Assembly (NCBI GenBank): GCA_973895155.1
Contig: OZ316891.1
Location: 21,440,413 to 21,504,412 of the forward strand
Length of the DNA stretch: 64,000 bases
DNA from: Marsupella aquatica
Taxonomy: Eukaryota > Plantae > Marchantiophyta
Direction: 5' to 3'
The first letter of the stretch is position 1. Each line of letters opens with the position of its first letter. A program made the translations under genes and the position numbers. Under the pieces are notes generated by a model that was not told the DNA's origin, did no database searches, and saw nothing but the letters and a program-made list of their open reading frames with translations. Shown one piece after another: positions 26,864-61,037 of this stretch.

Positions 26864-26865
26864 AT

Positions 26866-27173: not shown

Positions 27174-29412
27174 TCCCGAACTCCTCCCAACCCGGTTCTT
27201 GGCTCCTCCGGTTTAGCGAGTTGGGACCCGGTTTGGAGTCAGGGCTAGTCGAGGCCAGGCCCAAGGGTTAGGGTTTGGGGTCGAGTTAGAGGATGAGCAT
27301 TGGGATGGGTTGGGGTGGGGATTTGGATTTGAGGTTGGGTGGTGGCAGTGTCGAGTGGCTACGGCGAGTTAGGGTTTGAATGGCCAGGTCCACCAGGAAG
27401 AGCCCAAGCCAAGGGGGTTGTGGAAGGGCATAAGAGGAAGGCTTTATTTCATTCTGCAAGTGAATATGGCTTGGGTACCTGGACTAAATGGGGAGGAGAA
27501 AGGTAAATTTTGGTTTTGGTTTAAGTTTAATTTCTTTTGATTTGGTGTAAGCTAGTTTTGGGTTTTCTGTGGTTATTTTATAAGTCCCTTAGATAAATTA
27601 CAAAATTGATTAATGGAGGGATATAAAGAATTCTTTGTACGCGCATGCTCGAAGCTTTAGCTTGGCGTGCGATATTTTGTAAAAAACATTGCCTTAATAA
27701 CTTTATATCATTTTTCTATTAAGTAAAATACTTGAGAGGATGGAGATACCCATGTGCGCATGCTTGGAGCTTTGGCTTGGCGTTACAATTTCTTTCAAAA
27801 ATTTAATTGATAGATAAATGGTTGCTAAGTTATACGTATCCTATAACCTAGGTCAAAGTAGTGATATCAACAATTATGAGAGATTGAGAAATTTTTGTAC
27901 GTATTTTTGGAGCTTGGTGTTGAGATATTTCATTCAACATTGATACTATCATCCTCCAACTCGTTCTACTTTGTAAGAGCTGACTGCTACCCATTGCAAT
28001 ATCACCACGCTTGCATTTAGACTCCAAAATTATTGTGTGTTTCTCGAACACATCAAAATCATAATATACTCCTTCATGTTTTGCATCATAGGATCATTAA
28101 TGACATTTGTATTATTTTATCCTCATCAAATTGCAATTCCTATTGACCCATGTTTGCAAGATTTATAATAATAAAAACACATTTACTCATTCAACACAAA
28201 TTTGAACATTCATAAAGTAGCAATATGAACAAATAAAAAATACATTCTACTTCATATAACATGATTTAACATGCCAATGTTGATGTGGTAATTTGAGGGT
28301 ATTTATCTTCCTAATTTATAATTTCTAATCTCTAAGATAAAGACTATTTTGCAAAATAGTTTACAATCGTGAAATGTTTGAACCATTTTCAACTCCAAAA
28401 AGCACAATCATTTTTTCTCTTAATATTTGTGGTCATCATATTGTAGTATTGTACTAAGGACATAAATCAGCATTTAATGTCCAAAACTCGGTATTCAATC
28501 CCATGGAAGAACAAGAAAGGAATGATTTTCTATCGTTTAACACTTATGAATGACTAAGGTCACAAAAAACACAGGTTTGAGCCTTTTACTATGATTGCTC
28601 AGCAAGGCATAGATTTGAATGTTTGCTTAACATTGTAAATGCAATTAATAAAATGGAAACAAATAACAAAACACAATGAAATCTTGAGGTATGATGAGGG
28701 AGTCTGGAAAACACCAAGGTAACTTCTCATCAATACTTCATTTGATGTGATTTGGGTGATATATCCGTAAGAACATTTTTGGAATGGATTACTGTACTAG
28801 GATGATTACTAAAATGCCGTCAACACGTCTCAACTTTTCCTTCCAAAGGTACTCAGAAGAAACTAGTAATCAATCTCTTCGATATCCAGTCGGTACTCTG
28901 AGTCACGAATAATAAACACCATCATGATCAAATTGAAGTCACAGGTAATTGGTGAGTAACAATCTTTGCATCCCATGCACAAGCAATGTCACGCCAAAAA
29001 TTATGCATCAAGAACTCAAGAAGATGGGTTGTCACCACTTAAGGAATCTATTCCCTCATACTTCTGAGATTCAACTTCATACAAGTAATTTTACTTCAAT
29101 GATCTAAACTCTCAATCATTCAGACCAAGGAAGGGAGAAGAATTCCTTTGTATTTGCAAGCTCCATACCATACGAAAACACACGGAAGCTTTGCAAAGGT
29201 GATTATAGTACTGCAGCACATGCCACAGGCACTACTTTATTTTTTCACACTTGAAAATGACACATTCTACTTCATATAGGCTAGCAGGAACCCAAGGAGA
29301 CTGAAATACTGAAAGGACATGCCCTTTCATATCTAAAGGGTCTTGAATAAACTTAATGACGGTCATCCTTGAAAAGTGAATGGACACTGTTGAAAGTGTC
29401 AAAAATGCAGGG

Positions 29413-29996
29413 GACGCTTCAGAAAGCGTCGAGGTTTGAGCGGACGCTTTGCAAAGCGTCGGTGTTTGCGGTAAAACTAATAAACAGTGATTTTAATCTA
29501 ATTTTGACTTCTAAACTAAGAGTCGGAATGAGTTGAAACTTTTCTAGGGTACTCTACTACATATAGTCTATATGCTGGAAAAGTTTCAGACTTTTCTGAG
29601 ACTTCTAAGTGCCTCAAATAAATCGGTAAAAGTGGCGCGGTGTTATAAAAGTACGAAAACTGAAATTTTCTAAGTGTCGGGAACATAGTGGACGCTTCAG
29701 AAAGCGTCCAAAACTACAAAGGACTTTTATGGACGCTTCAGAAAGCGTCGGCTGAATTTCGAGGTTTTGGTCGCAGCGTCCATTTTCTGGGCTCCGGACG
29801 GGACGCTTCAGTGGGCGTCACAGTGTCGAGGTCACCTTCGGGGTAGCAGACGCTTCTGTGGGCGTCGCTCCTCATGTGGATTGCAGAGCGTCGGAGTACA
29901 ACTAGTTGGGTGGTGGACGCTTCAGAAAGCGTCGTGGTCTTTGGGTGGACGCTTCTCAAAGCGTCCAAAAATACAAGGGACGCTTCACAAAGCGTC
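29413..29996. repeat. cluster of nine 18-bp interrupted palindromes GACGCTT-N4-AAGCGTC, probably part of a non-autonomous DNA transposon
   Basis: Copies at 29413, 29443, 29691, 29732, 29802, 29849, 29916, 29948, 29979 (two have degenerate right arms). Confidence 0.85.
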
Positions 29997-38400: not shown

Positions 38401-38590
38401 GGTGGTTATCACTCCCTTGCTTCCCCACTAGGAAGCACTCACACAACCTCGCTCCCGATCTCAACACGGCAAGCAACTCCACAAGTTGTGCCCATAGACT
38501 CTCGCTATGATCAGTCTATTTATTAAAATTGGAAATTTCTTTGATCTTTGGACATTTAGGCACCAAAAAATATATATTTGGGCACAAGAA

Positions 38591-38892
38591 TTGTACATTT
38601 GAACAGTCGGAGTTGTACATTTGGGCACCAGATGTTGTACATTTGGGGGATCAAGATTGTACATAGGAGAAAATAAAATATTAATTTGGATTCTAAAAAA
38701 ATATATTTGGGTGATAATAATGTAAAATATGTTGGATAAGAAGTAGAACTTACTTACATTGATTGAATTTGACTAATAGAATATAACTATCTAGTAAAGC
38801 TTCAATATGATCTCTACCCATATAACTAGTAAAGCTTCAATATGATCTCTACCCATAGAACTAGTAAAGCTTCAATATGATCTCTACCCTTA
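38591..38892. repeat. subterminal repeats: TTGTACAT at 22-bp spacing (x4) and a 35-bp tandem repeat (x3)
   Basis: ttgtacat at 38591, 38613, 38635, 38657; ctagtaaagcttcaatatgatctctaccc at 38791, 38826, 38861. Confidence 0.85.
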
Positions 38893-39352: not shown

Positions 39353-40345
39353 TTACTCAACAATCCCTTCCATGTAGGTTTTGAGTGTTTTCAAAACATT
39401 CTTGGGAATGGTCAAACCTCTATCAATTATATTTTCTTCTCTAGAGCGTGACTTGAATCCATACATAGCAGAATTAGCAAATTGCCAACATTCAGTGGCA
39501 CTGTCAAACCCAGGATCCACCTCCCAAGTCTTAGTGGTCTGAAAGCAACGTGAATATCGCACATGATCCGGTGCATCATGCTTACCATGTTTAGGCCTCC
39601 ACCATTGCACTTGGAACATAGGTCTGGAGCATACCGTGTACTAGTAGGAGAATTCTCATTGCATTGCAAGTCTCCTGAAGGAACTTCATGGTTTGGGTCC
39701 ACAACACCCAAAGCTCTCACCAACCAGAAATGTTCTTTCCCATTCTTCTTTTCCCATTCATCCTCTGGACGGAGAAATACAAAGTGACCCTCTTGAATGT
39801 CCTGTAGAGGAATCCAACGTGCAAGTTCTCGCTCGTGTCGAGCGCCAACAAATGTTGCAGCTTGATCCTCCATCTCTTCTAGGTACTCATTCTGAAGCTC
39901 TACCATTTGTGGATTCTGTGTACTACTACTAGGCTCCCCAATGGTTCAGAGGTTCCTGTACTGTTAACCTTGTAACCAGTTCCGTGGTTGGTTTTTGGCC
40001 AGAATTCATATGTCAATGCTAACTGTATTTCTGCCTCCCCTTCAATTGTAAGCTCCCCACATAATACTTGCACCACCATCTCCCAATATTTCATCAAAGG
40101 AAACCGCTCACGATATGCTGTAGAGGTCTCATCCTTACAACTCTTCTTCAAAAACTCAATGTAACGATTAAGGAATGGGATGATTTCTTCAACCTTGCCT
40201 TGTACATCCCCAAAGATGGGTTTTGCAAATGATTGACCTTCTGGTAAAACCTTGCAACCGTTGGGGAAGAGCTTCAGACCCATCTAGACTCAGCGCATCA
40301 GATCCATCGCACCATTAAATGTAATTCATCATCTTTGTTCATTGT
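39353..40345 (-). pseudogene. 3' part of a frameshifted element-encoded protein, possibly the C-terminus of a 5'-deleted transposase
   Basis: Three overlapping ORFs (39900-40283, 39427-39906, 39353-39619) read as one protein ending in a beta-barrel-like segment GHFVFLRP...FWLVRA...FQVQWWRP; no DDE core visible. Confidence 0.45.
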
Positions 40346-41403
40346 TCAGGTTTAACTCGAGATCATCTCGAGCTTCAATTGGTCCACTTGTTTCTGGATT
40401 CCTTGGATGCAGTTGAAGCTCGAGATCATCTCGAGCCTATTGATGTTTTCTACATTACTTTGCTTCAAAATTTTATGATCGATCAATTGATTTTGCATTT
40501 GATGTAAGTGGCATAAGGCTCGAGATCGTCTCGAGCCAATATGCATTTCCTGCATGTTACCTAGTCAGATTTCTTCAAGTTGGAAACTCTTATCCTTCAA
40601 AAGTGAACATCATATCCAAAATATCTAAAATTTCCTTCCTCCAGGGACTTCTGTACCCTCCAACTCGTTCTGATCATTGACATCCGAACGGGTTTGTGGG
40701 TATCAAAAGTCAATGGAGAAAGTGGATTTTAATCATTGATTGAATATGATATTCGGATCACTCGTTTGAGATGTTAGGCTCGAGATCGTCTCGAGCTAAA
40801 TATATTCATCACCATCTTCCATTATGTTCATTCGTATCCCTTGGCCAATTTCTTTCAGTTGGAAGGATTCCATGTCGTCTACTTCAATTACTAATATCCT
40901 ATTCAATGTGATCCAAGCTTGCCTTTTGGACCACTTTCTTAGTCCTCCAACTCATTTGTGAAGATGACAAACCACTGAGTTAGAGGGTTTTGAATGTGGT
41001 CGAATAGGTGACATTGGATCATTCTTGAAAATGTTGTTCGTTAAATTTGACTGGTTTATGATATGCAATGGAATAAAACCTCAACTGATATATATGAGGA
41101 TCGAGATCATCTCGAGCCCTTGTCTTTTTCTTTGAAACAGATGATGGCTCGAGATCATCTGATCTCGAGCCTATTGTGGTTCCTAACTATTGTGTTATCT
41201 TTTTAGATTTCTTGGGGTTGAAATCTCTTTTTAAATTCCCTAGATGAAATGTGGCATTGAAACATGTCAGACTACAGTGCATAAAACCGTCAACTCAGCT
41301 GTCCTAAAAATGAAGAAAGATCAAGATCATCTCGAGCCACCTATTTATTTCTTGGTTTTGTGGTACATGTTTCTGACAATTGCTACATTTTTGGCTGTAC
41401 CAG

Positions 41404-44400
41404 GTGCGAAATTGAGATCGCCTAATTTGGTAGTCAAAGATGAACAGGCAATTGAGGTTTCCTGCCCTGGACAAGGTCATTTTGGATTATGTTGGGCCAT
41501 TGAGCTTGCTGAAACTGAAGACATGGAAGGAGCTATTATTTGTGTGAAGACGAGGTCTCCATCAGTCGATCCTCTAGTGTGCAGCCTTCTAGGGTCTGTT
41601 GTTTCTATTGTGACGAGTAACGGTAAGGACATGGTTTTGACGGTGGAGAACCACGAGACAGGGAAATGGGCTCTAATTAGACTTCACGCCAAAAACTACT
41701 CTTGCGATCTTAACATTGAACGTGCAGCCAGGAAACAACTGAGCGTGATATCAATAGGGTTCTTCCCCGAGGGTTTTACTATAAATAATCTGCTAGAAGA
41801 TACTCCTATATCTGGAGCCGACATAATTTTTGGATTCCTTTATTGTCGAAAGTATGGGTTTGATCGTGATGATGCATTCACGACTTCTTTCACGTGGAAG
41901 GTTTTGAGACTAATGTCAAAATCCAAATTGGGGGAGTTTGAATCCATATCCCCTGATTTTGTGCTTGGAGCCGGAGAATTTGACGAGTATGCTTGTAAAA
42001 AGTGGGTGTTGTCTCATCGGAGACAAATAGGTAAATTGAAATCTGTAGCTGCGGGAGACAAGATGTTCGGTTTGGACAAAAAGGAAGCAAAGGTCTCTCA
42101 AAAGAGGAAGAGGGTTGAGAAACCCAAAAGCAAAGCGAAGAAGGCTCCACCTCCAAAAAAGTCCGCGCCGCCCAAGGTAGATCTCATTCCGGCATCTTCC
42201 TTGGGTGTGATTGCACATACCGATGATGATGGCACTCCAGGAGATGCTCCGGGAGAAAAGAGCGTTAAAGAAGGAGCCAAAGTTCTTAAGGAGATTGAGG
42301 AGTATTATACATTTGGCACAAATGAAACTTTTGACATTCCTGTCACTAGTATAGATTTGCCTTCTGCAGTATTGGTATATAGGATGTTCAATAAAGACCA
42401 TGCCATGGAGATCGCAAAATCCATGGTTAGAAACCCTGGAATAGTACCAGCTGTGGCGGATTTAATTCCGTATTCAAGAGAGAGTTCGCAGTTGCTCCAT
42501 TATGAGAATAGTCCTGAGGATCGAAAAGAATTTGAGTGGGGTGTTAAGAATAAGAAGGTACAATTCCTTGCAATTAGTGGACAACACTCGGCAAAGGCAG
42601 CTGTTTGGATCATAGGTTGGGCTAAGAGCGATGCAAAGATGAAGGAGGTTGCGAAGAGTCTGCAATATCGAAAGTCACAAATTCTTTCGGACAAAACTTC
42701 AAGAGCAATACTTGCTCAATACTCACAAAGGGCAAATGCTGTTAATAAGACCATGGAATATGAGTCCTATTTTCTTGATACTATGGTCCATGCCCGTCGA
42801 CAGTTTGACGAGTGTGGCCATCCGGAGAGACCCGTGATTGGGTCCAGTAGACTAACGGATCATCAAAAGTTCCAGGTAAATTCAAACTCAAATCCACTTC
42901 TAGCTCGAGATTATCTCGAGCCTCGAGGTCAAGTTTCTGTATTTGATTTATCTTCATGTATTCGCCCATAAATTTCAACATAGTTCCTTAATTCTACCTC
43001 GAGATCATCTCGAGCTCAGATTTTCTTTGTACTATTTGGATCAGGATTTTATGGCCTTGGCCAAAATAACGACTGGAAAATCCGATCTGAGGAATATGTT
43101 TTGGTTGTTGTTTTTGGAAGAGAACCTCTTCCAAACTTGGAGACAAATGTGCATCGATTGGGTCAAGGGACTTCTTCCGGATGGTCTAGGGGAGTTAGGT
43201 TCAAAAATAAACAGGAAATCCCGGACAACAAAAATGATTATGCCGGCATTGTTTAGATGCTTTGAAGGAGACCTGAGTAGTGACGACATTCTGAAAGTTT
43301 TTACTATCGTTCAACAACATAAGGTTTTATTGAAGAAAGACCCAGCCAACAAATCTGATGTTCAATCAATGAGTGATATGGCTCATACTTTCAAAGTCAT
43401 GACCAAGCTGAGGGCAAAATTTTTGGAGTACTTCATTTTGAAGTATCCGGATCGGTTTGCCAATTCACTCACTTGGTTTGAGCTAACTCAATTTTTGCCT
43501 GCATTTATGGATCGTGGTGAGTTGCCCAAACTTAGACAACTTGCTGGAGAGGTTTGGATTTCCAACCTCCTAAAAAGAAATAGGTCAAAAGACCCATTTC
43601 CGCAAAGTCTCATTGTTAGGCTTGAGCAGATATATTGCAAGGTATTTGGTGGGATGCCTTCAATGGAGGATACTCCTTATCGCACATTTTTTAGCGATAA
43701 TTTGATGAGGACAATGAAGCCTGAGATTGTTGACTCGGTGCAAAGGATGTGCCCACTTTCCATTGTCAATTTTGGTCGTCTTCGACAACGGCAATGGACA
43801 GATGCCGAAATTTTTGTCTTGTTGGAGTATTGTTTGCAGATGGCGAACTCGACGGAGGTCTTGGTAATCTTTTTTGTCCGTCAAGGCCCATTGATAGGCC
43901 AGATTCAGAGTGCCTTTGAAAAGATTTATCGTGAGAAGAAAGTCCACACGAAGCTGGAGTACGGGAGCTACTACCATGATCAGCTGCCCAAGGAGGAGGG
44001 AGATTTTCTCATTGGAGCCCGAGACTCAATCATCTTTGGGGGAATTTGTTGTGAAGAGGAACCAAACTAGTCCCAAATTTTCTTTGATGACTTTTATGCA
44101 TTTTGGAACTACAGTGAGAAGTGGGACACAGACTTCACAATCTTGCCTTTGAAGGCCCAAACTGGAAACAACAAAGACCAATCAAAGGGGAAAGATAAGC
44201 TCGATGAATCCACTGTTGATGTTGAAGTTTTGGAGAAGATGGCCCCATCTTATGAGATGGTCGGTTGGCAGGGTGGCTTTGTAAATCCGAGAGTAAAGCC
44301 TTTGCAAATGACAAAGCGTCTTGTTGATTATTTCTCCTACCCAGGTCACACAGTGTTGGATTTCTTCTTTGGAGGACAGACATTGAAAGCTTGTGTCATT

Positions 44401-44961
44401 CTTGGTCGGGATTGTTTTGTGTATTCGGACACAGCTCAAGAGATGGAATTCACAGAAGCCTTTGCTCAGCTCCTTCATGACAACAAGCAGGTTTTATATG
44501 TGCCACCCAAAGAGCCGTTAGCATCTGAGGAAATTATTGCCAGCCCCCTCGTTCTTATAGAAGAGGCGGCCTTAGACATAGCTCCGGTGGAAGCCAGTGT
44601 TTATGAGGAAGTATTTACAGAGAATTTAGAGCATCGCAAAATGGAGGGCCCAAAAATCACAAGCTACATGGAAGAGGAGGGTGAAATACTGCCTGAATTT
44701 GGAAACGATGCTCGAGATGATCTTGACGTTCCAGGTGTTCCTTCATCGAGTGACCTTGGGGATGCACAACGTGAACAACAGTCTTCAACCTTGGATGTTG
44801 GCTGGGAATCCACCTTGCAGGATGCAATTAGCCAACCAATTCCAAGCCCTCCTCAACTGGATGAGATTTTCTCTACTAAGAAAGCTAGTGGCTGCCATAC
44901 TCCCCCTCAAGACGAGGCAGGTGCATCGTCCTCTCCCTTGGACAAATGTTTTGCGCTTTAG
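41404..44961 (+). pseudogene. ParB/Srx-like domain plus N6/N4 DNA-methyltransferase-fold protein; exons 41404-42875 and 43045-44961; in-frame TAG at 44068-44070; upstream exon(s) unresolved
   Basis: ParB-like: FDIPVTSIDLP..VYRMFNKDHAMEIAKSM...FLAISGQHSAKAA. Phase-0 GT-AG intron 42876-43044. MTase C-half: VKPLQMTKRLVDYFSYPGHTVLDFFFGGQTLKACVILGRDCF, cf. beta-class KP..L...LI...S..GD.VLDPF.GSG....A...GR. Confidence 0.72.
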
Positions 44962-45573
44962 AGAATAAGCTTGTTTTCACAGATTCTTCTACTAGAAGCC
45001 CCATAATTCTCCCTTTTGTTAGGAAACCGGGGACTAAAATTGGTAGAACTGGTTACAAATCACTCAAAGCAAGTGCTACTCATTATGTTTGGACTGATGG
45101 ACCGTCAAAAGGTCAACAAGTCAGTATAGAGCAGTCTGAGAAGATTATTCGATCTAGAAAGTATAGGAAGGATAAGTTCAAATTAGTGCCAGTTTGGTCT
45201 GAGCCAGCTCTTGTTGAGACCCTTCCCGGAGGGATAAATTTGGACATTCAAAACCAACTAGGAGATAACGTTCTAGATGAATTTGGGTCTTTCAGCACGT
45301 GAGGTTGAAACCCAAGTTAGTTTGAACAGTCCTAAAATTCAGCCGTCTAAATTATTATGTCTACCTTCACAGAAATAGGCGGGCCCTTACCAGTTGTGGA
45401 GTGCGTCAACAATAATCTCCAAAGATATCCTGAGATTTCTTCAACTACTGACCTTCAACCAACAATAGATATGACGTTGACTGTTGTTCATTCACTTGTG
45501 ATGCTCGAGATCATCTCGAGCATTTCTCTATTTTATCTCCCACAATTCTAACATTGGTGTTCCTTCTTTGCAG

Positions 45574-46632
45574 GACCCTTGCCTCCACTTCACGGTCCGA
45601 TCAGACGGAAGCTATTGATTCTTGACCTCAACAAAATGTGTTGGGATTCTGTCAAAACGCCAAGTTCCAGATCGCGCCGTAGTACGACAAGTGTCAAGGG
45701 TGTCCACTGGGGGAGACTTGGAGGGTTTAAATTTTTGTATGTTGAGCAATCCCATCTTCACGAGTTCTTAATCGCAGCTTTTTTGTTATTTGATGTTGCC
45801 ATTTGGATTTGTGCAAGGAAACCCAGGACGGATGAAATGATTCATTTGATCTTCAGTCAAGATGAGCGAGAGCAATTCAAGTTTATTCTCACACAAGAAG
45901 ATACATTCGATACTGGAATCTAGAGGCCTGACATTACCGATGGGAAGGCAAATATTCATTTGAAGGATTTGAGGGTGGTTTGGAAATGTTATGGTGGATT
46001 ATACGACGAAACTAATACATCTCCTTCTTGATGACACTCCAATGAAGGCATTTGCAAATCCAGAGAATTGTGGGTTATTTCCTTCCTCATTTTTGCATCA
46101 CTCCACGGATGATACATTCTTTCCAGAAATACTATGGCCTCTGCTCAGGAAATTGTATCATGCCTTCAATCTTTAGCACTACCTTTTTATCAATCATCCA
46201 AAGTGATCTATGATAAATGTTTTAGCGGACAGAGATCAACAGGCTGCCATTTATGCGTTGTTGACGGAGCGGTGGGGTAGTATGGTATGGGTTCATTCGG
46301 TTATCCATACAGTCTTGGATGTCACAACGGACGAAATTCCTTGGGATATCAAGAATGAAGTGCAACAATTACCACCAATGGAGGAATTGATGGAGGAGGC
46401 GATCAACGACCTTGCAAAGACGTTAATTGGATATCAGTACACAGGACCCTACAGAGACAATCATCATGGATTTGTTTTGGAAGTCTTGAGGTGTAGGGAC
46501 CTCACCACGAAGTTCTGGAATATGAAGCATCTCGATTTTTGCAATCACGATATGAAATATGACCCGTCAGGGTCTAGATTTACTTGCTCAAATGAATTTT
46601 GCAGGGTGGAGGAGCATGAGATTTGGGTCTAG
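45574..46632 (+). pseudogene. FCP1/SCP/NIF-family HAD phosphatase domain plus Cys/His-rich tail (stops and a frameshift)
   Basis: RKLLILDLN, LHEFL...FDVAIW, KDLRVVW...YDETNT, LLDDTPMKAFANPEN; acceptor ctttgcag ends at 45573. Confidence 0.78.
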
Positions 46633-49600
46633 ATTATCTCGACCCTACACTGAACAGTTACAATGTGAGTTGTAGATATACATATTCTTACTAAAAAAAA
46701 AAGTGAAGCTATGCATACTATCCATATGAGTCTAGATGCTGTTGATCCTCTTTTACTTGTAGATATGTTCTCAGAAAAAGGTTATTTGGGTCTCGACCAT
46801 ATACAAAGGGAATAGCTAGAGATATAGATTCAACAACGGGTCAAAATTATGTGGACCCTACATTTGGGTCAAGATAATCTCGACATAGATTTTTACATAG
46901 TAATTGATATACATTCAACAACCGGTCAAAACCATCTAGAGCCTGCATTGGGACAGACGTGGTCTCGACCCTGTAAAAATAGGTTTTTTACTTTTATAAT
47001 ACATCACCGGTTTACCTTCCGTAACTTGGTTATCACGGGTCATTTGAATTATTATATTGTCTTATTATATTTTTTCATTGTTTATATTATATATAATAAG
47101 AACATTTTATTGTCTTTTAATTAATAAGTATTAATAATTGATAACTGAATTATTTAATTAATAATTTGGGCATTAGAATTGTAATTTTAGACCTCAAAAA
47201 GTGTATATTTGGCAACTAAAATGTATGCTTTTGGGGAACAAGTTATAGAACTTTTGGGGGTAAAATAAGAAATTTTAAGGTCAATTTCTGAACTAGAGAA
47301 ATTCCAGTTTTAATGAATAGGGTGATTATGGTCAGTATACCCAGAGTTTCCTCCGCTTCCTTCACCGAGAGCTTCAAGTTTGTCACCTCCTATCGCAACA
47401 AGGCAAGTGATTGAGACTGAGCTCACTCCCAGGCTTCAAGCTTCACCCCTCTAGTGTCGAATCATAACAACGTCGGCATACACACTCACTGGATTCACAT
47501 ACTCACTAGACAGTGCTTCAAAACTGAGGCTTCAACACAAGTATTTACTACAAGGCATAGTACAAGTTCAGATCCCAACACCTTCCTTGACTCTCCTTGC
47601 CGCCTACCTAGTGGACTAGCTCACTATCTACCCTCTCAAGTACCTCAAACCAATGCTGCTGCCCTCTGAAAATGAGAACCTCAGCCTCCAAGTTTTCAGC
47701 TTTACAAGAGAGGGTAGGAATGAACAAGTGAGGAGGCAGCCCCCTGCTTCTCCTCTTATTCTCTCACACAGCACCCCAGGCCTCCAAGCCAAAGCCAACC
47801 CAAACCAAACCAGGCCCAGGGTGCTAACTCCAGTTAGTAGTCATTGGAAAAAGTTAACCCAAGTGTAACTAGATGATTGCTAACTTAACCCGGGTTAAGT
47901 TTCTACTTTAACCGCAGGTCACTCAATTACCATAACTCCGACTCTGGTTGTCACACAGGAAACGGCAGTAGTAGAATCTCCTTGTGACGTGAGTAGCCAG
48001 GGTACCCCTTGGTAACTCTTACAACCACCAGAATTTACACATTCCTTAAACCATTTTATATTTTTATATATATGAGCCACGAAAACCCCATGGCACGGGG
48101 AACAAGCAGTGTCACAGCAGCATACAGAATGTATACAGAATGCCAGAATTTACACATTATATTTAAAACAACATACTCACGAAAGAAAGCTCTAGCTCGG
48201 CCCACAAATGAATATTGGAACGCCCCTGAGTTATGGGTTATCATTGAGTCTTGGGTTATGCCACTGAGTCTCGGCTATCACAGGAATACAGATCGGCCCT
48301 TGTTCAATTTGGAGACCTTATCCAGAGAGTACTTATGTGTGAATGGGTGATAACCAGCAAAATATCAGTATCTCAAGTTGTTGGTATACCGCAATACTAA
48401 CGCCTAACTATCTAACCAGCAACACTGAAATACTGGCTAGTTATTTTATTTGTATCCCCTAAGTGTTGGGCTTCATAATAGCCCCACTACTTAACACAAC
48501 GGCTACTTTAAGGGCACATAAAAAAACTTCTCATAGTCCATTCAAATTCAGAACCACCGCTAAGTCATCCCGGGAGTTGGGTCTACCTGGTGGGGTTCTC
48601 CCCTAGCCTCCCTGGTCCCTCACCCGACTTTGAACTGGCCTCAAAGTCCTCCTAAAGGCCTAGAAATGATTGCAGCTGTACCAAGTTCAATTAGAGTTGG
48701 TGTGGACTCTTTAAACAAAGAGCTTGGATAGCTCCCTTGGTAGCCCATTCAAACTCCTTAGCAAGACACAGGTTGCAAGTTCAAAACCAGTCGCCAACTC
48801 CTCTCTCGCCATCAACATTTTGTAGCACCAAGCTGCTGCGCTATGCTACACTATGTTGCATAAGGCAGCACAAAGCAACTTGCCGCAGTGCAAAGCATCG
48901 CGATGCTACTTCCCCATTTTCTTCTTTGCTCTCCTTTTTTTCTTCTTCAACAACGGTCTTCCTCTGTAGCAAGGTGATAAAGAGATAAATGACTATTTAC
49001 TCCTTAACAACTCGATTTCATTCCCGTTAGGAGATAAGATCAAAAAGACCTAATTAACACAATTTGAGAAGTTTACACCAACATTCTTAGGTTGGAGAGA
49101 TTTGTAATGATCTCTTAACATAAGTGTTTAACCACAAACTCAAGTGGGTAATCCTTAGGATTCACGGTGCAAAAATAAACACTAGAATTAACAAAGATTG
49201 AAACTAGAGAGAGTAGGTAGGAGGTTTCAAAGCGCAAGGAAATTGAATTTCGACCATCACCACTCCTTCAATAAGGATTATGGCTTAATTTAAGATTTGG
49301 AAATCGATATTATATATGCTTTTTGATTTCTCATAGCAACTCTTTCTCCATCTCTTGAATTTAGAAGACAACATTATAAATCAACCAGGGACACCTTTCT
49401 GATCTTGCTTAAGACGATACTAGGATACTCGAATTGATTTACTTCTTCTACTATCCTTAAGATTGCTTGTTTGAGTTTCATGCAATTTCAGTTTCTCTTT
49501 GGTGAATCTTCTATATGAATTGGTCACAGACCTTGCTGATCTTCCAATATCATCATAGGCACACGCTATTATTCATTGAATATTGCACAACAACTCAAAG

Positions 49601-50248: not shown

Positions 50249-51796
50249 CTAATAGCTCCTCGTAGTCAAGTCACACAGCTCCCTTAAGTCCTTACAGGTC
50301 TTTGAGAGGCCTGTAAATGCATCATCTACCTTGGCACTCACATCTACCACTAAATGATTAATCTTTGAGAAGAGGATGGGTGTGGTGTTCTTGGCCAAAT
50401 ACTCATCATAGATATGTGCCTTAAGAACATCCACAGAAGCTATCTTAATTAAAGGCTTAATTAGATCCAAAGATTGAGTGATACTGAGTTGGAGAGTATG
50501 CTCAAGTTCATTCTTCTTCTTACTCCTTTCCAACTGCTATTTGAGCTCGGATATCTTCTTTCTGAGGAACTCATTCTCCTCTCCCATCTTTTTCTTATCT
50601 GTGGCATCACTCATAGTGGAGATCTTCTCAAGGATTTGCCCTGATTTCACTCATAGCTTCTGAGCAATATCAGTAATGGCCTTCTCCATCACAAAGGTCT
50701 TCCTCTTCACCTTCTGAAATGCGTTTGAGATGATCCAAAAGTCATCAAGGGTGTCTTAGGAGGCATGTCCGGGTGCATCCGGAAAGTGAGTTGGGTCAAC
50801 AAAGGCCTGGTCAAAAAAGTCTGGGTCAAGATTTCGGGCAGAAGACCAGGTCTTTTGGGGATTCAACTCTACTGGTTCCTCATCCTCATTGTCGTCAGAG
50901 GTGGCCTGAGTGATATCTGGATCTACTTCTCCATACTTTATGAAGTTAAACTTGGCTACCAGTATCTTCTTCTCTTCTGTGAACAAGACTCCTTCAAAAC
51001 TATACAGATGTACCAGGTAGCAGGAGAGAGGAGTAGGGCCTTTATTGGAAAGATTATGTATTAGCTTCCTCATTAGATCAAAGATGAGCTTGGCCCAATT
51101 GATCTTCCTTTCCCCCTTGTAAGCAGCAACAATGGTAGAGCCAACTCCAACAATAACTCTTCTTGGCTTCTCAGGATACAGCAATGGTACCAATAAGTTG
51201 AAGACTCGTTTCAGATCAGGGTCCACACACCTGGAAACATTGAATTCATCCTTACTGCTGATAGCTCCTTTGAAGTAAGGAAGAATCAGATTAACAACTC
51301 TTCCTACTAGACCTTCTCCTTCATCCTCTAGGACAAAGGCTGCTGCAACCATCATCTGCATCCATCGTTCAGGTCGGCCTTGAGAGGTATGTTTAAACTC
51401 AGTTGGGCACTCCTTTGATCGTATCTCTCTGATCATGTCCTCACTTTGATAACTCCAGGGAAACTCCATCAGAGACTCACAGCCCCTTCTGAGCAAAGAC
51501 TCTCTCAGTTTGACCTTCTCAGCTTCACTGCCCGGAATAGCTGGCTTCAGGATTTTCATGGCAACAGGGACCTCCTTCCTCTTTGATCGTCTCACAAGGG
51601 CTTTAACCGGCGTGGGTGTAGGGGATGTTGAGGTTGAATGTCCCTTGGAAACCCGTGAAGTGAACATTCTGGCTTGACCCGCCTTTTGATCCATAGAGTT
51701 GATGCAAGTAAGAGATTGGATTCTGCCCAATGGTATGCCTCCTCTGCAGCGAGCTCTATAGTTGTGCGACCTCAAACAATTCAATCTCTTCAGCAT
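50249..51796 (-). pseudogene. LTR-retrotransposon accessory ORF (unknown function) plus downstream coiled-coil remnant
   Basis: 346-aa ORF with GCESLMEFPW...PERW...CVDPDLKRVFNLLVPLLYPEKP...INWAKLI...TPLSCYLVHLY, resembling extra ORFs of non-seed-plant gypsy elements (recalled similarity); LTR-like sequence at ~47332-48023. Confidence 0.5.
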
Positions 51797-52619
51797 CGTA
51801 AGATGATAGAGATGTCTGGGTTGACCTGACCATAACTTTTCTGATCAGGTGACAACCTAATCTTCACAAATTGATCAAGATTCCTTCAATCACGGTGCAT
51901 GTCCATCAAACGTTGGTGGACATCACTCTCAATCCGGCCTTCAGTAGCGGCATCCGGATCGACCTGGTTGCCCTTCTCACAATCGACTCGTCCATGATCA
52001 GGATCTCAAACTCCTGCCTTCACTCCCAGCATAGGAGTAGATATTCCCCTCACAACGATTTAGTCAGTACCCTCATATAGAGGCTCTCATCGTGCAATGG
52101 AAGATTGGTCCTATAATCCGGACCCAAGATCCTCTACCAAAAGGGTAGAGCCTCCTCACTCTATTGCTTATATAGCCTAATGCGCTCGGGAACTCAAAAA
52201 CCTACTAAGTTCAGCTTCGAGAGGTGTGAGAACCCGGATCGACTCTCCTTCCTTATATCCGGATTCTACTGTAGCTCGGCCTGTGTTTGACTTATGGTTT
52301 TAAAACTTTGGTACAACTGATGTACAATACAGTCGAGTTTCAAGATATTCTATCTCGTTGATGGCTTCAGTGCAAAGTTTCGGGTCGATCCTCCAACTTT
52401 CATATCAGTCCAGGTCGACCTCAGATGGGCTTGAAAGTTGTATAACACTTCAAAGTAGTCTTTAGGTCTCTCTTCAGCCTCATTTGATGTCTCAAACTTA
52501 AAAATTTTAAAATTTATGGTTAGTTAACCCTTCTCTCATAAATATCCTCATCTCACATCCTCCATAGCTCAGTCTTTCAGCAGCATCACTAGAAGAATCC
52601 GAGGTGAACTGAGACCGCA

Positions 52620-52940: not shown

Positions 52941-53441
52941 CAACAGAACCATTTGGGACTCTATATACTCATGTTTATAACTAATAAGGTTCACATGCAA
53001 GTTATAACCATGACTAATGAACACAGAGGGACAGTTCATAAGAAGAGAGAGCACTCGACATTACAATACATAGAAACCTGATGTTCTAACTTTAGAAATA
53101 TAACACATTGAATACAAGAAATGAACATAGCATGAATGACATCCACATGAAACAAAGCATCATATAAGCAGATCCTACATAAAACATTCATAAGAATTAA
53201 ACACAATCACAATCTTGCTAAAAAATGAAGATCATTTGAATTCCAATGGAATAGTTTACAATGTGATCAATGTAATTTAGACAAAACAGGAACTCATAAT
53301 TGATGACTGTAGGATGAGATAACTGAAAGCACATGCATGATACTATGAATCTCCAAGAGGACATGATTCTTGTACTGTTTCTTGACATCTAAAATCTACA
53401 TAACATGACTCACACTACAAACAAATAATGGCATGACATTG

Positions 53442-56400
53442 TTATGGATCCTCTATGAACTTGCTTGGCCATAATACCAAAGAACCTGCAGCATCTCCAA
53501 GTGTCTTTTGAGGAGGATCATCATTTGTGTTTGGAATGGGAAGGACAGCTTTAGGTTTCACTAGTAATGTGACTAACACTACTGAATAACCTGGGGGAAT
53601 CCTCTTGCCATGGAACGTTGTGGAACCAACCTGCACTCTGGCAAATCCTACTCGTGTTCCACTCTCATCAACAGCTAACAAGCCACTTTGTCCCTCAGCA
53701 TTAGGTGCTTTCCCCACTTCCACCTTAGATCTTTCTGCCAGCACTGTTCTTGGAGGTTTGTATGAAACCTTTGACGTGGCTCTGCTCCCACCAGCAGACT
53801 TGCTTCGTGTGCGCATGCTTCCTCTCTTCACAGTAGTGAAGCTAGGCTCAGTAGGTTCCTCTGTTAGGACTGTCACAGTAGCAGGTTCATCACCTGGGAG
53901 TGTCATACCAACTAACTCTTTGGTTGGATTTATCTCAACAAGAGGCACACCTGTCATTGAGAATGATACATTCTGCAAATCATTTATCTCTGCAATGGAG
54001 TCAAGATCTACATAGCATGAATCTGGCTCAATGGTATCATTGTCATGCTTGCTGATATCCTCATTTGCCCCAACATTGATATCATCCACTCCCTTGCCAA
54101 TGTCATCCTCATCCAAACATGGTTGACTGCCCTCTGTCAAACAAGTTGCTTGTACAGACTGCAACTTTGTTGCCTCTAAATTACAGCGAGTATTTGCCAG
54201 GTTCTCATACTTCTTCTCTGTAGCACCTGTCTTATTCTCTATGGACACAACAACCACAATATATGTTACTGAAAATAACACATTCAACAAACAATGTCAA
54301 TTCAAACTATACATTTAATAATCATATCCCACACAGTTGTAAAGGCCTTACCTTCAAGCCTACATGTCGTTGGCATGCCAGAAGAGTGCATCGACTTTGC
54401 CACCTCAAGTGGTGATGGTGGAACTCCTGCAGAATTGGAATCAATTTTATCTCTCACCGACACAACAGCTTCCATTAATGTCTTGAAGTTCACATGGAAC
54501 AAGTCAGTCAATGAATTCAAACGTTCATTGATCTCTGGAAGACATGTTTCGACAGCCTTCAAACGACCACTTATCTCTGTAAGTGAAGATCCACCTCCCT
54601 ACATGACACAGGGGTATAGGTTCAATCACTCCATATGAAATGTTGGGCAATATATGCACAATCAATGTTATATACAGTGTACACCTGAAATTCAACGCAG
54701 GTCATTCAATTACCAATCAGAACTCATATAACTTACATGCTTGGAGGATTCAGATGCACCCTCTTGAGCCCGGGTGTTCACAATTTCAGCCCTCAACTCT
54801 TCTTTTGAAGGGCTTTGCCCCAATTGGGCTTTCTGCACATGCATGGCAAACACAAGTTATCGATCAATATTCAGGGAACGTACACTAAAAAACAAAGTTT
54901 ACATGTAGGGACAGTACACTAAAAAATAGTACATAGTGTAGCATAAATTACATAGCTAGGCCATTCATTCTTACCAAACGTTTAGCTGTCGGTGCAGTGC
55001 CGGTCCTTCCTGTCAGATTAGGGTTCTGAACACTCAACCTGGCCTCGGTCATCTGTGAACTCTTCTTTTTTGAAGCATCTGTTACAAAATAAGCTACTAA
55101 CCTTGCCCACACTTTATCATCACAACTGGCTGGTGGAGGCATATCTGGCTTCTCCCCACCTTCCTTCCAAGCCTTATGCATTCTCCACCTCTCTTGCTTG
55201 ATAATTTTACCTGCTGTACTCTCTAGGCAACCTATGTCCACGCCATCATCACTGCCCACATAATTCCATTTGGCAGCAACATTTTCACATACAGTCTTCC
55301 AATCTTTTGGATGCTGTTTTTTAAAATTAATAACACTCACATCTAACCAACGCAATACTTCAGCTTTCAAATCAGCATGCCATCGGTTCTTGCGAGGACA
55401 CTCAGCATCCACCCATTGTCTCTCATTCAACTTTACGTTCCCTTTCTTTGTCACCTCCCCTCGTGCACTGCTCTCGGTAGTACTGGGCGTTGTATTGGCC
55501 ACCCCTTCATTCACCCTACCTGGGGTTCTGAAGCCACCTGGGAAAATACAATGCCATTCATGCTTGAGAACTACATATAGCAGAATGGATGACGGCAACA
55601 TTCAATGCTTCACTTCAAGAAAAATTCTTCAAACATACATACCTGTAGCTCTGCCTGTAGATGCCTGTGCAGGGACTGCACTCTGAAATTGTTGCGACCC
55701 TGGACCACCTGTCCAGCCTAGTACAGGGGCCGGATGATGTCACTTTCTAGGTATGTGTGTGCAAACATATGTACTGAAAACTAAGTACAAACTGTAGGAA
55801 AACAACTGAACATTCACCGACATACCTGTCCCCCTTCCGTGCTGCATCTGCATAGGGGCATTAGTGAATACTTGAGTCGATGGTTCGACTGTCCAACCTG
55901 CACACATACATTTTCTATCATTATACATGTGCAGAGTCCCCCCCACGTGAATGGACTCCACATATAATGAGTTCTTCCATTGCTGACAAGATCAGACATT
56001 ACCTGCTCCTCTTCCAGCGTTTGTAGGTACTGAATTTTGATATCCCTGCCAATTACCTTCACCACCTTCCCAACCTTGTTCATTCCACGACCCACCACCA
56101 TCCTCCCAACCTGGTTCAACCCATGTCTGTCCTTGTGGACATTGGAACTGATCATTACTAGCATTTGCCCAATCAGGTTGGGCAGAATCTGCATGCAATG
56201 GCAGGTGGACAGAATTTCATGTTGTCTGAATCCAATACATCCCAAACAATGTCAAAAATTGATATGCAGTCTGAAATTCAGGAGTGCCATGCCTTCACAA
56301 AGAACTGGCATATAGATATATACTCACATCCCCACGGTTGAGGTGGACGTCCATACCCACGAGATTGTGGGTTTGGACCTGCTCTGCCTCTACCACGGGC

Positions 56401-57149
56401 ATAACCTAGAGCTTGCCCCCTGCCATAGTATTGGGCACCAGCCTGGGATCTACCACTACTACCACCTCGCCAACCTTGATCAGAGGTCAGCCCCCCCTGC
56501 TGGTATGGTGCATGCACAGGCTTCGAAGGCAAAACAGAACTGGCAGGACGCTGCATCACATCACCAACTACAATGTCAGGAACTAAGCAAGGTACATATG
56601 TGTAGTACTGAACATATGAAACCTCTAAACAAGAGTTTTTAACTCAAAACCTTGTTGGGAAAACTACTTACATGTTTCTTTTGGGGCTGCTCTGCAATGT
56701 ATTCATCTTCATAACCCCCATCCTCATCCATTTCCTCTGGAAAATACTCATCATCTGCATCTTCTTGTCTAGTGTCTGCACCCACCTGTGCAGCATCAAT
56801 GTCATCTCCACATTCTGCCATTGTAGGTACGACCTTCTTGCTCAACCTGTCACTCCGACGCACAGGCCCAGAGATAGTGCTGGTCACCCTTCTTGCGTAC
56901 TCCTTTTGTTTCTTTGAAAATGCTGTGGCTCTGCGACATTCCAATATGAGAATACAGTCACAATTTCAGTGCCACATTGAACTATTCATGTCACACAAAC
57001 TCAGCGGAGGGGTGTAGTTGAGAATCGTTCCCTTACAATTCAGCCACATCCTTTTCCAGATCCAGTTCTGCGATTTTGGCTTTCACGTATGCTCGTTGTT
57101 CCATAGCTTTCCTTTCATACTCACACATCTCTGTGTCACTCTGTTCCAT
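53442..57149 (-). CDS. TnpA-like (Ptta/En-Spm and TNP1-like domains) multi-exon gene; exon boundaries only partly resolved
   Basis: MEQSDTEMCEYERK...; RGRGRAG-rich linker; PPPASCDDKVWARLVAYF...SSQMTEAR...TGRTG; C-terminal FHGKRIPPGYSVVLV...LPIP...TLGDAAGSLVLWP. Confidence 0.78.
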
Positions 57150-57305
57150 CCTACTGGACCACAAAAACATGTCATCTATGGTCACCCCGTATAACACAAT
57201 GCAACCACAATCACCAGGCATCCATCCATACATCTGTGTTGCTTCAGAATTACTTTATTACACATCCTTCCCCTCACTAATGTCTATGCAAACAATTCAC
57301 ATTAC

Positions 57306-60300
57306 TCATGGCACAGGCACACTGTTGGCATCTGCATCTCTGAATTCGCCTCCTTCAGCAAATGCATCTACCCTTGTCACAGGAATGAAGTCCCCGCTAT
57401 CATGAACTACAGGCACTTGGTCTGAACGCCGACGATCAAAGGCACTATGAGAGTGTAAATGAAACTCAAGGTTTGATCCTTCCATCCGGCGTTGCCTGGC
57501 CTGTTTATGACACACTACACGCCAACCTGGGGAGTCTTCCACATCCAGGAAGAAAGCTTGCTCCACCTGACTAGGAAACACAAATGGCTCAGACCATTCG
57601 GGCAATTTCCCTCTGAAATTGGCCAGCAAGAAACCGTCGTTGTCTCTCTTCATGGTAGCCCTGTTACCAAGCCAATCCTGCCGCACCCATGAACCTTTCA
57701 TAAGAATCACAGGACTGGACACCGCCCCATAGTCCAGAGCCCATATGTCAACTAATTCTCCCACATATCCCATCTCCATCCAGGCCCTGTCGTGATTGTG
57801 GCTCTGTTGCTCAAATACAGTGATGAGCCCGCAGTCATTCGTCACCCTGTAGGCACTGTCACCATCCTTCACTCGGAAGTGATTCCCATATGCTCTCATC
57901 CGTTTGTAAGTCTTCACTTTCAGGCTAGGGGCATTAGACAGTAGGTAAACATCTGCATCCATGTCTGGGTGGGTCTCGTGATGCTCTCTAATTGCCACTC
58001 TGATCCACTCCATGAAACCTGGAAAAGTTGTTCCTGCAGTGGGATGGGCCGCCTTCAATGACTCATACTCCCTGAACGAACAACCACACAGCATTAGCTT
58101 GGGTAAACATGAACAGGCTGAAGGAGAAAACCACACGAACACAACATTTAAGCTCATGAACTGGATTATAGCACATGTATGCACTCACTGTATCCAGGGT
58201 TCCATCACCACAGTGTTGTGCAATACAAAGTCATGTGCCAAGTCTCTCATAGATATGGTCAGGTTCTTTGTGGTTGCAGCCCCTTCCAGTACTTCACCTA
58301 CCACCCCTTCCTCCTCATCAGAATTCCACACCCTGGTCTTCACATGCTCATATTGTGCTATGTATTCGGTCAGAAATCCCAGAGTCTCATCCTTGATGTA
58401 ACCTTTAGCCATGCTTGCTTCAGGTTTGTAATATGTTCTCACGTGACCTTTGAGTAGCTTCATGTACCGTTCCAAAGGGTACAACCAACGAGCACTCACA
58501 GGCCCAAATTGGTGTAGCTCTTCCACAACATGGACAAGTAGGTGGGTCATGACATCAAAAAATGCGGGAGGAAAATAAATCTCCAGGTCACACAGCACCT
58601 GAGCGACATCTTCTGTCAGTTGTGGGAAGTGTGTTTCATCCCAAACCTTCACACAAATACGACGAAACACATCACTGAGTCGCATGATCACAGTACGAAC
58701 AGGCTTCTGCAACAGGCCCCTCAGGCATAAAGGCAACACCTGTTGCATCAACATATGGTAGTCATGGCTTTTCATACTACCAAGCTTTCTAGTCATGATA
58801 TGCTTCTTGAAAGCACTGCCATAGTTTGAAGGAACCTTCAAAGAACTCAACCTCTGCACAAATAGTTCCCACTCTGTGTCTGTCAGAACATAGGGCGCTT
58901 GGTACTTCAAGAGCACATCAGCTCTGTGGGCATGTGGCCTCAACCAAAGATGGGGTTTCATTCCCCTCTGTTCAAGATCCAATCTCACTGAACCAGTGTC
59001 TTTCTCTCCACACAAGAATCTGAGTAGACTCTCACAAATATTCTTTTCAATGTGCATAACATCAATGTTATGTTTGCTTGGCTCAAACTCCTGCATCGTT
59101 GCAATGCAAAAGCGTCAGGAAATGCCTCAAGTTTAGTCTCTCTCTTCGAAATGAATGCACATGCTCTGAACCAAAACATGTATCCCAATTAGCATCAACT
59201 CCAAGAGGCTTACCCTCCAGTACTTGAGCTCCAAGTCCAATATGCTCAGTCTTTTTACACCATATCGCTTTATTGGATCACTCACTCCATCTTCCCTGCC
59301 CCCTCGTTTGATATAGTCATCCCTCAGTGCTCCCCACTGCCTGATCTCCTCTTTGGTCACTCGTGCCGGGGGTCCACGTTGCTCAATCTCATTGCCAAAG
59401 TGTGCAATCAGTGCCTGTCTTTCTCTGTAAGGGTGATCTGTCTTCAGAAAACGACGATGGCCCATGTATATCACTTTCTGCAGGGCTCTGGAGTACTCAC
59501 TGGTGACATTGCGCCCACAGATAGTACAAGCACAATATCCTTTTGTTGTTTGGCCTGATATCATCCCATGGGCTGGGTAGTCAGCTATAGTCAGAATGAC
59601 AATGGCTCTAAGGATGAATGGGTTTAACCTCCCAAGCCTCTGTAGGACATCATATGTGAGAACTCCTTCCTCCCAAAGCTTTCTCAATTCCTCCACTAGG
59701 GGAGCCAGAAACACATCTATGTTGGCAGATACAGCACTGTCTGGCCCTGGTATCAGTAGGACCATCAGAACAAAAAATCGCTTTGTAGTCATCCAAGGAG
59801 GAAGGTTATAATTCAAAATAGTTACAGGCCAGCATGAAAATTTGTTGTTCTTGTCTCCAAATGGGTTTACCCCATCCAATGACAGCCCAAGTCTGACATT
59901 CCTCGGCTCAGCAGCAAATTCGGGATACATCTCATCTATGAGTTTCCATTGCCTTGAATCTGCAGCATGTCGTTGTAGCCCATCATCACTTTTCTTGTCA
60001 GTTGCCCAAGTCATCATCTCCGAGATGGCACGGCTTCTGAACATCCGCTGAAGTCTGGGAATGAGTGGAAAATGACGAAGTACCTTGGCGGGAACCATAG
60101 ACTTTCCTGAGTTCCGATACCTGTGCTTCCCACACTTAGGGCATGTCAACGATTCTTTATACTCCTTTCTGAAAAGAACATGCCCATCAGGACAGGCATG
60201 GATCGAATCATAGTTCAATCCAAGATTAGATATGCATCTTTTTGCCTCGTACATGTTCTTGGGCAAAATATTACCATCTGGTAGCACAGTTGTTCGCAAG

Positions 60301-61037
60301 AATGCCAACAACTCAGAAACCAAAACGTTGGGGACATTGTGGTTGCCGCAAATGTTCAGGAACATGATGACAAATCCCAGTTTAGAACATTTGCTACCGG
60401 GGTACAAAGACTTCCTGCCTTCCTGTATTTGCAAGGGAGAGCCAAACATCCCATCATGCCCAGGGGTTTCCTGCCCTATCTCAAACTCATCAAGAGGCTC
60501 TTCGACAGGGGGCACACTTGCATCTGCAGCCGTATCCTCTTCATTGTCCAGCCCATCATGAAATGCATCCAAGTCTTGGAAGATGTCTCTCACCATCTCT
60601 TCCACATGAATTCCTTCGTCACGTGGTGCTGCCTGAGCACCATCCCGTTGGAGAGCTGACAACCCACAGAGACCAGCTACAACATTTTCAAATGCACCAG
60701 GCAGAACCTCACTTGCCCGTCTTGCAGCATTGGCAGCATCAAATTCTAACCTCCACTCCTCGTCGGAAGAATCTTCCTCTGCAGGATCATTCCAAACTCG
60801 ATGTCGTGGATCTCTTCCATGAACCGCGATATGCCGCCAAACCTCATTCAGACCCCTGGTACGGGATCCTTGGCAGATTGCACAAGGACATCTCATCCTA
60901 CTGGCTCCTGAAAGTCTGGTTCGTAACCTTTCACGCTGCCAAAGCTTATTATCATGGCGTGATATCCTTGTGGGATGATGCAAAGGCAGTGCCTGTGCCC
61001 TGGGCTGGGTCTGGGGAGGGTGGTGACCAGGGTGCAT
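57306..61037 (-). CDS. TnpD/Tnp2 CACTA transposase (exons ~61037-59214, 59090-58189, 58071-57306)
   Basis: CPCAIC; IHACPDGHVLFRKEY...CPKCGKHRY; LRHFPLIPRLQRMF; RNVRLGLSLDGVNPF; YNLPPW; IADYPA; HNIDVMHIEKN; MKSHDYH; PPAFFDVMTHLLVH; PFVFPSQVEQAFF; in-phase GT-AG introns and no stops. Confidence 0.93.

Follow-up and report, generated by a model that had tools for sequence, protein, structure and literature searches.

In a stretch of the genome of the liverwort Marsupella aquatica (GenBank assembly GCA_973895155.1, contig OZ316891.1, positions 21,440,413 to 21,504,412) there is an 8.8-kb DNA transposon, multi-copy in the genome and broken in the copy present here. The whole stretch of 64,000 nucleotides is referred to below as the window, and positions are counted from its first letter. 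The element has the remnant of a transposase gene on one strand and, head to head with it on the opposite strand, an accessory gene for a protein with a predicted ParB/Srx-fold domain and a methyltransferase fold, followed by a region with a phosphatase fold. A palindrome recurs through the element, and it is this palindrome, as a putative binding site for the accessory protein, that we discuss here.

The whole window was searched for CTCGAGATNATCTCGAG with up to 3 mismatches, and the chance level was taken from 100 shuffles. There are 13 matches, 12 of them within 40356-46884 (no mismatch in 5, one in 3, two in 2 and three in 2), and the remaining one, with 3 mismatches, is at 22862. Shuffled windows gave a mean of 0.17 matches and a maximum of 1, and none of the 100 reached 13. 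A further palindrome at 41148, with a 4-nt insertion in its centre, brings the number inside the element to 13. The initial annotation of this DNA had pointed to recurrent palindromes inside the element and these are well borne out. Its statement that there were none elsewhere in the 64 kb holds for sites with 2 mismatches or fewer, of which the remaining 55 kb of the window (copia, gypsy and CACTA elements included) has none, but has to be given up at 3 mismatches for the match at 22862. A search anchored on the non-CpG bases only returned the 12 known sites and one unrelated match outside the element, so that no population of decayed palindromes was overlooked. An assembly or linker artefact is excluded, as four runs belonging to three studies gave contigs with the palindromes and their variants. 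The palindromes are a genuine feature of the element.

The full motif is 19 bp, G-CTCGAGA-N3-TCTCGAG-C, and not the 17 bp proposed initially, the leading G and the trailing C each being present in 10 of 12 sites. It has a 7+3+7 layout, with two 7-bp arms and a 3-nt spacer. The centre had been read as T-N-A but is in fact a free 3-nt spacer, as other copies show by a G at position 42913 (94-100% of depth in all 4 runs) and often by one at 43007 (13-78% of depth in 3 runs).

The flanks of the palindromes were thought to be unrelated, and for the most part this is so, with only 1 of 264 pairs in agreement at 9 or more of 12 positions. The exceptions are the palindromes at 40356 and 40419, which together make a 26-nt inverted repeat, and that at 46868, which lies within an 85-bp direct duplication at the 3' end. 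The palindromes might function as hairpins in RNA or in single-stranded DNA, as a splicing aid across the intron for instance, or be a self-propagating fold-back sequence, with no protein reader at all. Adjacent pairs do form long predicted stems (z -3.5 to -6.8), palindromes 8 and 9 bracket the interior of the intron, those at 40356 and 40419 have inverted flanks in common, and the two 3' palindromes exchange the outer pair on both arms. However such stem folding is trivial for two copies of any palindrome, the pairs are without flanking target-site duplications, seven of the palindromes are between genes, and subfamilies have the arm sequence itself in common, beyond its symmetry, as apparently does a relative with 49% protein identity, so that we give this explanation very little credence. 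An origin from micro-MITEs (miniature inverted-repeat transposable elements) is excluded, as target-site duplications were not found around palindrome pairs.

The features of the element are listed in Table 1. Seven of the 13 palindromes are between the two head-to-head genes. Coding sequence makes up 64% of the element, yet only one palindrome lies fully within it (binomial p 3.6e-5, with our own exon intervals). The earlier view that they are mainly non-coding thus applies to 12 of 13, the one at 44711 being inside coding sequence, while the one at 41320 is inside an open frame yet upstream of where homology begins. Distances to the nearest element end range from 0.47 to 4.4 kb, with 10 of 13 more than 1.8 kb from either end. 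Palindromes 42904 and 42998 had been placed in a 169-nt intron, and we agree. The one at 45504 had been placed in an intron ahead of a phosphatase exon, and its position is indeed non-coding, but the gap in which it lies could also be intergenic. Many homologous open reading frames (ORFs) end just beyond the end of exon B, and on that ground the 275-nt gap may be intergenic.

The clustering of seven palindromes in the divergent-promoter region is what one might see if a host transcription factor or chromatin protein read the motif and the element had merely accumulated its sites. Palindromes were not found near the host gene or within the other elements of the 64-kb window, however, and a dyad of 14-16 bases is long for a host factor. 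We consider this explanation most improbable.

Table 1. Features of the transposon, with positions in the window
Feature	Position	Strand	Remarks
Left end, similar to a terminal inverted repeat (TIR), weak	38507..38540	+	34-nt match (82%, E 0.002) to 47297-47329 in reverse complement
DUF7869 DDE transposase remnant, C-terminal	39356..40247	-	frameshifted; residues 946-1230 of 1230
Palindrome 1	40356..40372		exact
Palindrome 2	40419..40435		exact; 26-nt inverted repeat with palindrome 1
Palindrome 3	40519..40535		spacer TCG
Palindrome 4	40779..40795		spacer TCG
Palindrome 5	41100..41116		1 mismatch
Palindrome 6	41148..41168		4-nt insertion in centre
Palindrome 7	41320..41336		2 mismatches; 5' of start of protein homology
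Accessory exon A	41397..42875	+	weak PH-like N-terminal domain, linker, predicted ParB/Srx-fold domain ~42260-42820
GT-AG intron, 169 nt	42876..43044	+	palindromes 8 and 9 inside
Palindrome 8	42904..42920		in 169-nt intron; G at 42913 in other copies
Palindrome 9	42998..43014		in 169-nt intron; G at 43007 at 13-78% of depth
Accessory exon B	43045..45298	+	helical region, methyltransferase fold ~43666-44487, acidic tail
Palindrome 10	44711..44727		2 mismatches; sole fully coding one (acidic tail)
Palindrome 11	45504..45520		exact; in non-coding gap 45299-45573
NIF/FCP1-like HAD phosphatase-fold region, broken	45574..46632	+	PF03031 E 1.4e-4; homologue P0081
Palindrome 12	46627..46643		outer pair G/C, not C/G; overlaps last codons of final ORF
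Palindrome 13	46868..46884		outer pair G/C; G at 46871 in other copies restores symmetry
Right TIR-like end, weak	47297..47329	-	pairs with left end

Among the sites of the non-CpG-anchored search, CG is retained in 20 of 24 arm slots as against 2 of 12 spacers (Fisher p 2e-4, a test that presumes a CpG ancestor for each spacer, seen at only 4 sites, and treats the sites as independent, which they are not). Each of the 12 spacers could have arisen from TCG or CGA through C-to-T or G-to-A changes. This pattern suggests that the 7-bp arms are under selection and the 3-bp spacer is free. The initial annotation had also suggested that binding protects the element. However the spacer CpG has been lost in 10 of 12 and the surroundings are as CpG-depleted as elsewhere in the element, so the palindromes are not shielded from methylation, and on present sequences selection on the arms would account for the CpG pattern better than protection.

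In diverged subfamilies the palindrome persists although the non-coding DNA about it can no longer be aligned. Contigs of diverged subfamilies align to the window only over 20-21-nt palindromes, both 5' of exon A and in the intron. In a contig 83% identical in exon A there are 20-nt matches at two upstream palindromes (at one depth, 79.3, on the record and at both joints), and in other contigs the palindrome is 10 nt past the 5' part of the intron or 17 nt ahead of its 3' part. Loose contig ends at 42996, 43015 and 43035, two of which appear to belong to one contig, have the same palindrome amid different intron sequence. At a greater distance, P0003 has 49% identity over the ParB domain and is in the same supported clade as the window's protein. 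On back-translation, the peptide given by read-through of its intron is compatible with two palindromes, the spacers of which would be CCN and YGG; there is a third in the linker. The two-palindrome fit has a frequency of 5e-6 among shuffles of its 33-residue tail, and a search for palindrome-compatible peptide elsewhere gave 1 match in 116 other proteins (34,897 residues).

Outside these, one relative of the locus was found in metagenome contigs (L001) and none in viral contigs or prokaryote genomes. A scan of viral contigs for the motif gave 50 stretches with one site each and no cluster, and tblastn of P0115 against phages gave no match. At 784-795 in the homologous intron of L001 there is one 12-bp perfect palindrome of a different sequence, which may be chance.

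Turning to the accessory gene, natural homologues P0027 and P0115 run uninterrupted over the first exon junction, and a stop at 44068-44070 in exon B is not present in other copies. The phosphatase-fold region reads DLN in place of the usual DxD, and a Riccia gene model joins the methyltransferase fold and the NIF part in one protein. The N-terminal domain (41400-42040) gives a confident model with PH-like matches only, at Z of 5 or less, the SANTA domain of M18BP1 being at Z 4.6.

The structure model of exon A has a mean pLDDT (predicted local distance difference test score) of 73. When its C-terminal half was compared by structure, the 7 best VIA rows, namely PadC, pNOB8 ParB, KorB, SerK, SbnI, sulfiredoxin and Atu1540, all belonged to the ParB/Srx superfamily (Z 7.4-5.3), the best being PadC (Z 7.4, root-mean-square deviation (rmsd) 3.3, 97 aligned). 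Foldseek puts ParB and Noc first (E 0.01-0.06; ParB 6sdk at E 0.01, prob 0.95), and against a viral library it is phage ParB proteins that rank first. The domain is not named by Pfam, NCBIfam and PDB sequence searches. The accessory protein is predicted from these models to carry a ParB/Srx-fold domain, in line with the ParB-like protein of the initial annotation. The GxxRxxA motif of ParB binds cytidine triphosphate (CTP), and its arginine is required. In the family discussed here the nucleotide-binding motif is SGQHS in 15 of 15 aligned rows, with Ser for the GxxR arginine. A conserved pattern that by eye resembles the helix-turn-helix (HTH) of ParB spans the intron junction, and the helices after the ParB-fold domain may form a ParB-type HTH.

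The second half of the protein, in exon B, models as a beta-class amino-methyltransferase (CcrM Z 17.7, rmsd 3.4, 219 aligned; PvuII Z 15.7; Foldseek E 1.8e-8), so that the methyltransferase fold suggested earlier holds at the level of the model. PF01555 matches the C-terminal part of the fold at E 6.6e-7, and the order is permuted as in the beta class, with the catalytic region ahead of the region for binding S-adenosylmethionine (SAM). At the presumed SAM-binding motif I (FxGxG), 19 of 28 captures read DFFSGG, which has one residue fewer than the motif of M.RsrI. The motif IV loop, assigned by position, is without PP in 26 of 26 captures (DFSR in 10, DFAR in 3, DFTR in 3, and others).

It is in this light that we consider the possibility that the protein is active as an N4-cytosine or N6-adenine methyltransferase and that its mark falls on the TCGA of the arms, with N4-methylcytosine (4mC) blocking 5-methylcytosine and its deamination so that arm CpGs survive. 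The fold is complete, there is a conserved Asp/Asn at the end of the presumed catalytic strand together with the conserved DFFSGG, and, going by the accessible text of the sources, there are bacterial N4C enzymes with a TCGA target (PMC8885841) and liverworts do use 4mC (10.1101/2021.02.12.428880). However none of the 26 captures has PP after the Asp, while according to the same texts the bdelloid rotifer N4CMT needs SPPY for activity and Marchantia DN4MT1 has TSPPY. A 4-bp target also leaves the fixed 7+3+7 layout unexplained. We regard active methylation of the arms as decidedly unlikely, and with it the earlier claim that the protein marks the element. Orthology to Marchantia DN4MT1 is excluded by the same motifs. 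As judged from the alignments, neither the usual ParB CTP motif nor the usual catalytic motif of methyltransferases is intact anywhere in the family, and the methyltransferase fold would seem to be a non-catalytic module for binding DNA or SAM.

In the case of the transposase, the remnant comprises the last 285 residues and has 58-71% identity by tblastn to Calypogeia fissa P0100. The PF25273 (DUF7869) match is on the homologues P0005 and P0100, and in full-length P0100 there is a Transposase_23 match in a long N-terminal region. In this copy the DDE core and N-terminus are deleted, with no trace of the core upstream, and because the core is missing the present gene-gene spacing need not be original. 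PMC4455052 and PMC5751038, in the parts available, were no help in classifying a DUF7869 transposase. The named homologues of the element proteins are all from Calypogeia or Riccia, which points to a liverwort as the host. Contigs of the four runs (three organisms, three studies) span the whole element with many variants, and read depth over the element is at least 20 times that of the adjoining unique stretch, a figure which is no copy number and supports "multi-copy" at most. The element had been described as having TIRs, and the paired 34-nt ends agree with this, but the similarity is weak, a longer TIR alignment scoring 80 against a shuffled maximum of 88. No clean target-site duplication was found at the element ends, the best flank agreement being 3 of 4. 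In run X3 one contig links 38277 to 47544 across 22 other letters, and may represent a repeat with its insertion site still unoccupied by the element.

Near the left end there is a different short repeat, TGTACATTTG, at 38592-38645, with one variant in equal orientation at 47202 near the right end, and these repeats are candidate transposase sites, separate from the palindrome. This bears on what we see as the main rival explanation, that the palindromes are read by the transposase or its splice product, as for TnpA of Spm or the AtMu1 transposase, with the ParB-fold gene uninvolved. As described in the available text of 10.64898/2026.08.24.746577, transposases and TnpA bind to clusters of their cognate motif and switch on the elements that encode them, and the long N-terminal region of P0100 with its Transposase_23 match speaks for this explanation as well. 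A second palindrome cluster in the window, at 29383-29996, has no ParB-like gene that we could see nearby. However TnpA sites are terminal according to the available text, whereas here the nearest palindrome is more than 460 bp from the ends and most are much further in. The left end bears a different repeat, and the palindrome is also inside the intron of the accessory gene, across subfamilies. We think this explanation unlikely, and infer that the reader is the accessory protein rather than the transposase.

Our preferred interpretation, which we hold to be moderately probable given the models, is then that the palindromes are binding sites for the element's own ParB-fold accessory protein, and that binding is likely to keep the element transcribed or mobile. 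A dimeric DNA-binding protein encoded by the element would fit the fixed arms, the free spacer and the location of sites, which are in promoter, intron and 3' DNA and not at the ends. The accessory protein would dock on the palindromes as a dimer through its ParB-fold half, and once docked it would probably help the element to stay transcribed or mobile, with no methylation of the element involved. Binding might activate the two head-to-head genes in the manner of VANC, which is a tentative proposal and the least certain step. The self-recognition proposed in the initial annotation survives in this form, the motif being confined to the element within the window (at 2 mismatches or fewer), mostly non-coding and kept in diverged subfamilies, but the parts that had the protein mark and protect the element do not. 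A more specific version is that a domesticated ParB-methyltransferase fusion of the phage type, with its usual catalytic motifs lost, is a sequence-specific self-recognition clamp that loads on a private 19-bp dyad recurring through the element and switches on or assembles the transposon, and this we treat as doubtful.

Several points weigh against binding by the accessory protein, in addition to the presumptions of the Fisher test given above. The contig joints with a short side are flagged as unreliable, and the P0003 palindromes are not read as DNA. L001, which has 44% identity and is in a distant clade, has the homologous intron without such a palindrome. By simple count the arms inside the intron are no poorer in listed variants (at 2 of 28 positions, neither above 8% of depth) than the remaining intron sequence (at 13 of 135). 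The intergenic CpG observed/expected ratio is 0.40 with palindromes masked, as compared with 0.37 in the transposase remnant, and being so similarly depleted the intergenic DNA bears no mark of demethylation over a broad region. Taken singly, each method gives a weak ParB match (Foldseek E 0.01; Z below 8; Pfam only DndB at E 0.052, in 1 of 15). An HTH profile comparison with SopB gave a probability of 0.4, but has no power as the ParB domain itself was unaligned.

The window has several other features. The cluster at 29383-29996 is a second private palindrome, GACGCT-N6-AGCGTC, with seven perfect and further decayed copies in 600 bp; arm CpGs are retained, and a coding partner was not seen nearby. 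The element at 53400-63650 is of CACTA/EnSpm type; it has a Transposase_24 ORF, and its accessory ORFs encode a twin BRCT and a PHD finger. It is strongly CpG-depleted and without the palindromes. A copia-like element at 17139-27173, named by eye from translations, has paired long terminal repeats 9.7 kb apart. Nested in it is a gypsy-like fragment with a chromodomain, and a 161-nt unit is repeated three times in tandem at 23168-23650. At 50756-51844 a 362-aa ORF on the minus strand, with no Pfam match, is in another high-depth repeat.

With regard to known systems, the closest by description are in algae. Ectocarpus Sola1-1_Ec32 has a gene for a ParB-like and N4/N6 methyltransferase protein opposite its transposase, and self-binding and modification were proposed (PMC12477816); the text available mentions no palindromes and names no binding site. 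Like it, our element is a DDE DNA transposon with an opposite-strand gene combining ParB-like and amino-methyltransferase parts, but it differs in its land-plant host, altered catalytic loop, PH-like N-terminal domain and FCP1-like phosphatase fold. In Plavaka (EnSpm/CACTA) of Bostrychia there are tandem inverted-repeat arrays by the ParB-like gene PAG3, and its authors draw the parS analogy, with the repeats as putative self-binding sites (10.1101/2025.02.11.637652). Here too a ParB-like accessory protein and inverted repeats are in one element. However, as far as the available text goes, PAG3 is fused to a 2-oxoglutarate oxygenase with the methylase separate (PAG2), whereas our ParB and methyltransferase folds are in one gene; PAG3 repeats are tandem arrays and ours dispersed single palindromes with unrelated flanks, introns included; and the transposase family differs from DUF7869. 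The Sola superfamily, for its part, is defined by a Sola-type DDE transposase and a 4-bp target-site duplication.

The system is therefore not undescribed, as the initial annotation had it, since the same idea is in print for both algal elements in the texts available to us. No report of the transposon family or the motif in a land plant was found in the literature searched, in which subscription papers are thinly covered. By analogy, what we have is probably a land-plant variant of the self-binding system proposed for red and brown algae, and probably the first in land plants. In the available text of the algal papers self-binding is proposed and untested; here there is an exact candidate site in a land plant, and the host group contains a laboratory model, so the proposal can be tested directly. 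The motif offers a built-in control in its conserved arms and free spacer, and there are natural relatives with and without it, with homologues in Riccia and Calypogeia. If the proposal is true, it would add a bacterial-derived route of transposon self-recognition alongside VANC and TnpA. Were the more specific clamp version true, it would mean VANC-independent anti-silencing in liverworts, with an FCP1-like phosphatase fold in tow, and the first plant parS-like site defined through arm-versus-spacer conservation.

In the case of bacterial ParB/parS and Noc/NBS there is a likeness in the ParB/Srx fold followed by helices, and in clustered dyads with 7-bp arms. Bacterial parS is a 16-bp dyad with a 7+2+7 layout, whereas the spacer here is 3 bp, and the GxxR arginine is replaced by Ser in all aligned rows; the name parS-like of the initial annotation does not apply strictly. 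There is also a methyltransferase fold where bacterial ParB has its C-terminal dimerisation domain, and no Pfam match to ParA among the element ORFs scanned, part of the element being deleted in this copy. The pairing of ParB fold and methylase is like that of the phage ParB-N + N6_N4_Mtase fusions seen among our viral structure matches, and ParB-linked methylases are listed for phages and chlorophytes by Iyer et al. (PMC4738411, in part). In the sources as available, the phage fusions, MpDN4MT1 and bdelloid N4CMT retain SPPY, TSPPY or DPPY, which the present family does not.

Finally, the motifs bound by VANC in Arabidopsis are 8-9 bp long and enriched in non-coding DNA, be it in introns, intergenic or terminal, with binding and demethylation proven (PMC5735166, as are the other VANC details here, from the text available). 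Our element is like VANDAL in having an accessory protein of its own and a family-specific motif in non-coding DNA (12 of 13 here). VANC motifs are however not described as palindromic and have spread by tandem repeats, and VANDAL is Mutator-like, whereas here there is a DUF7869 transposase and one local direct duplication only. By the features compared, this is not ParABS, not an active beta-class methyltransferase and not VANC/VANDAL, but a system that may act like VANC with a ParB-like geometry.

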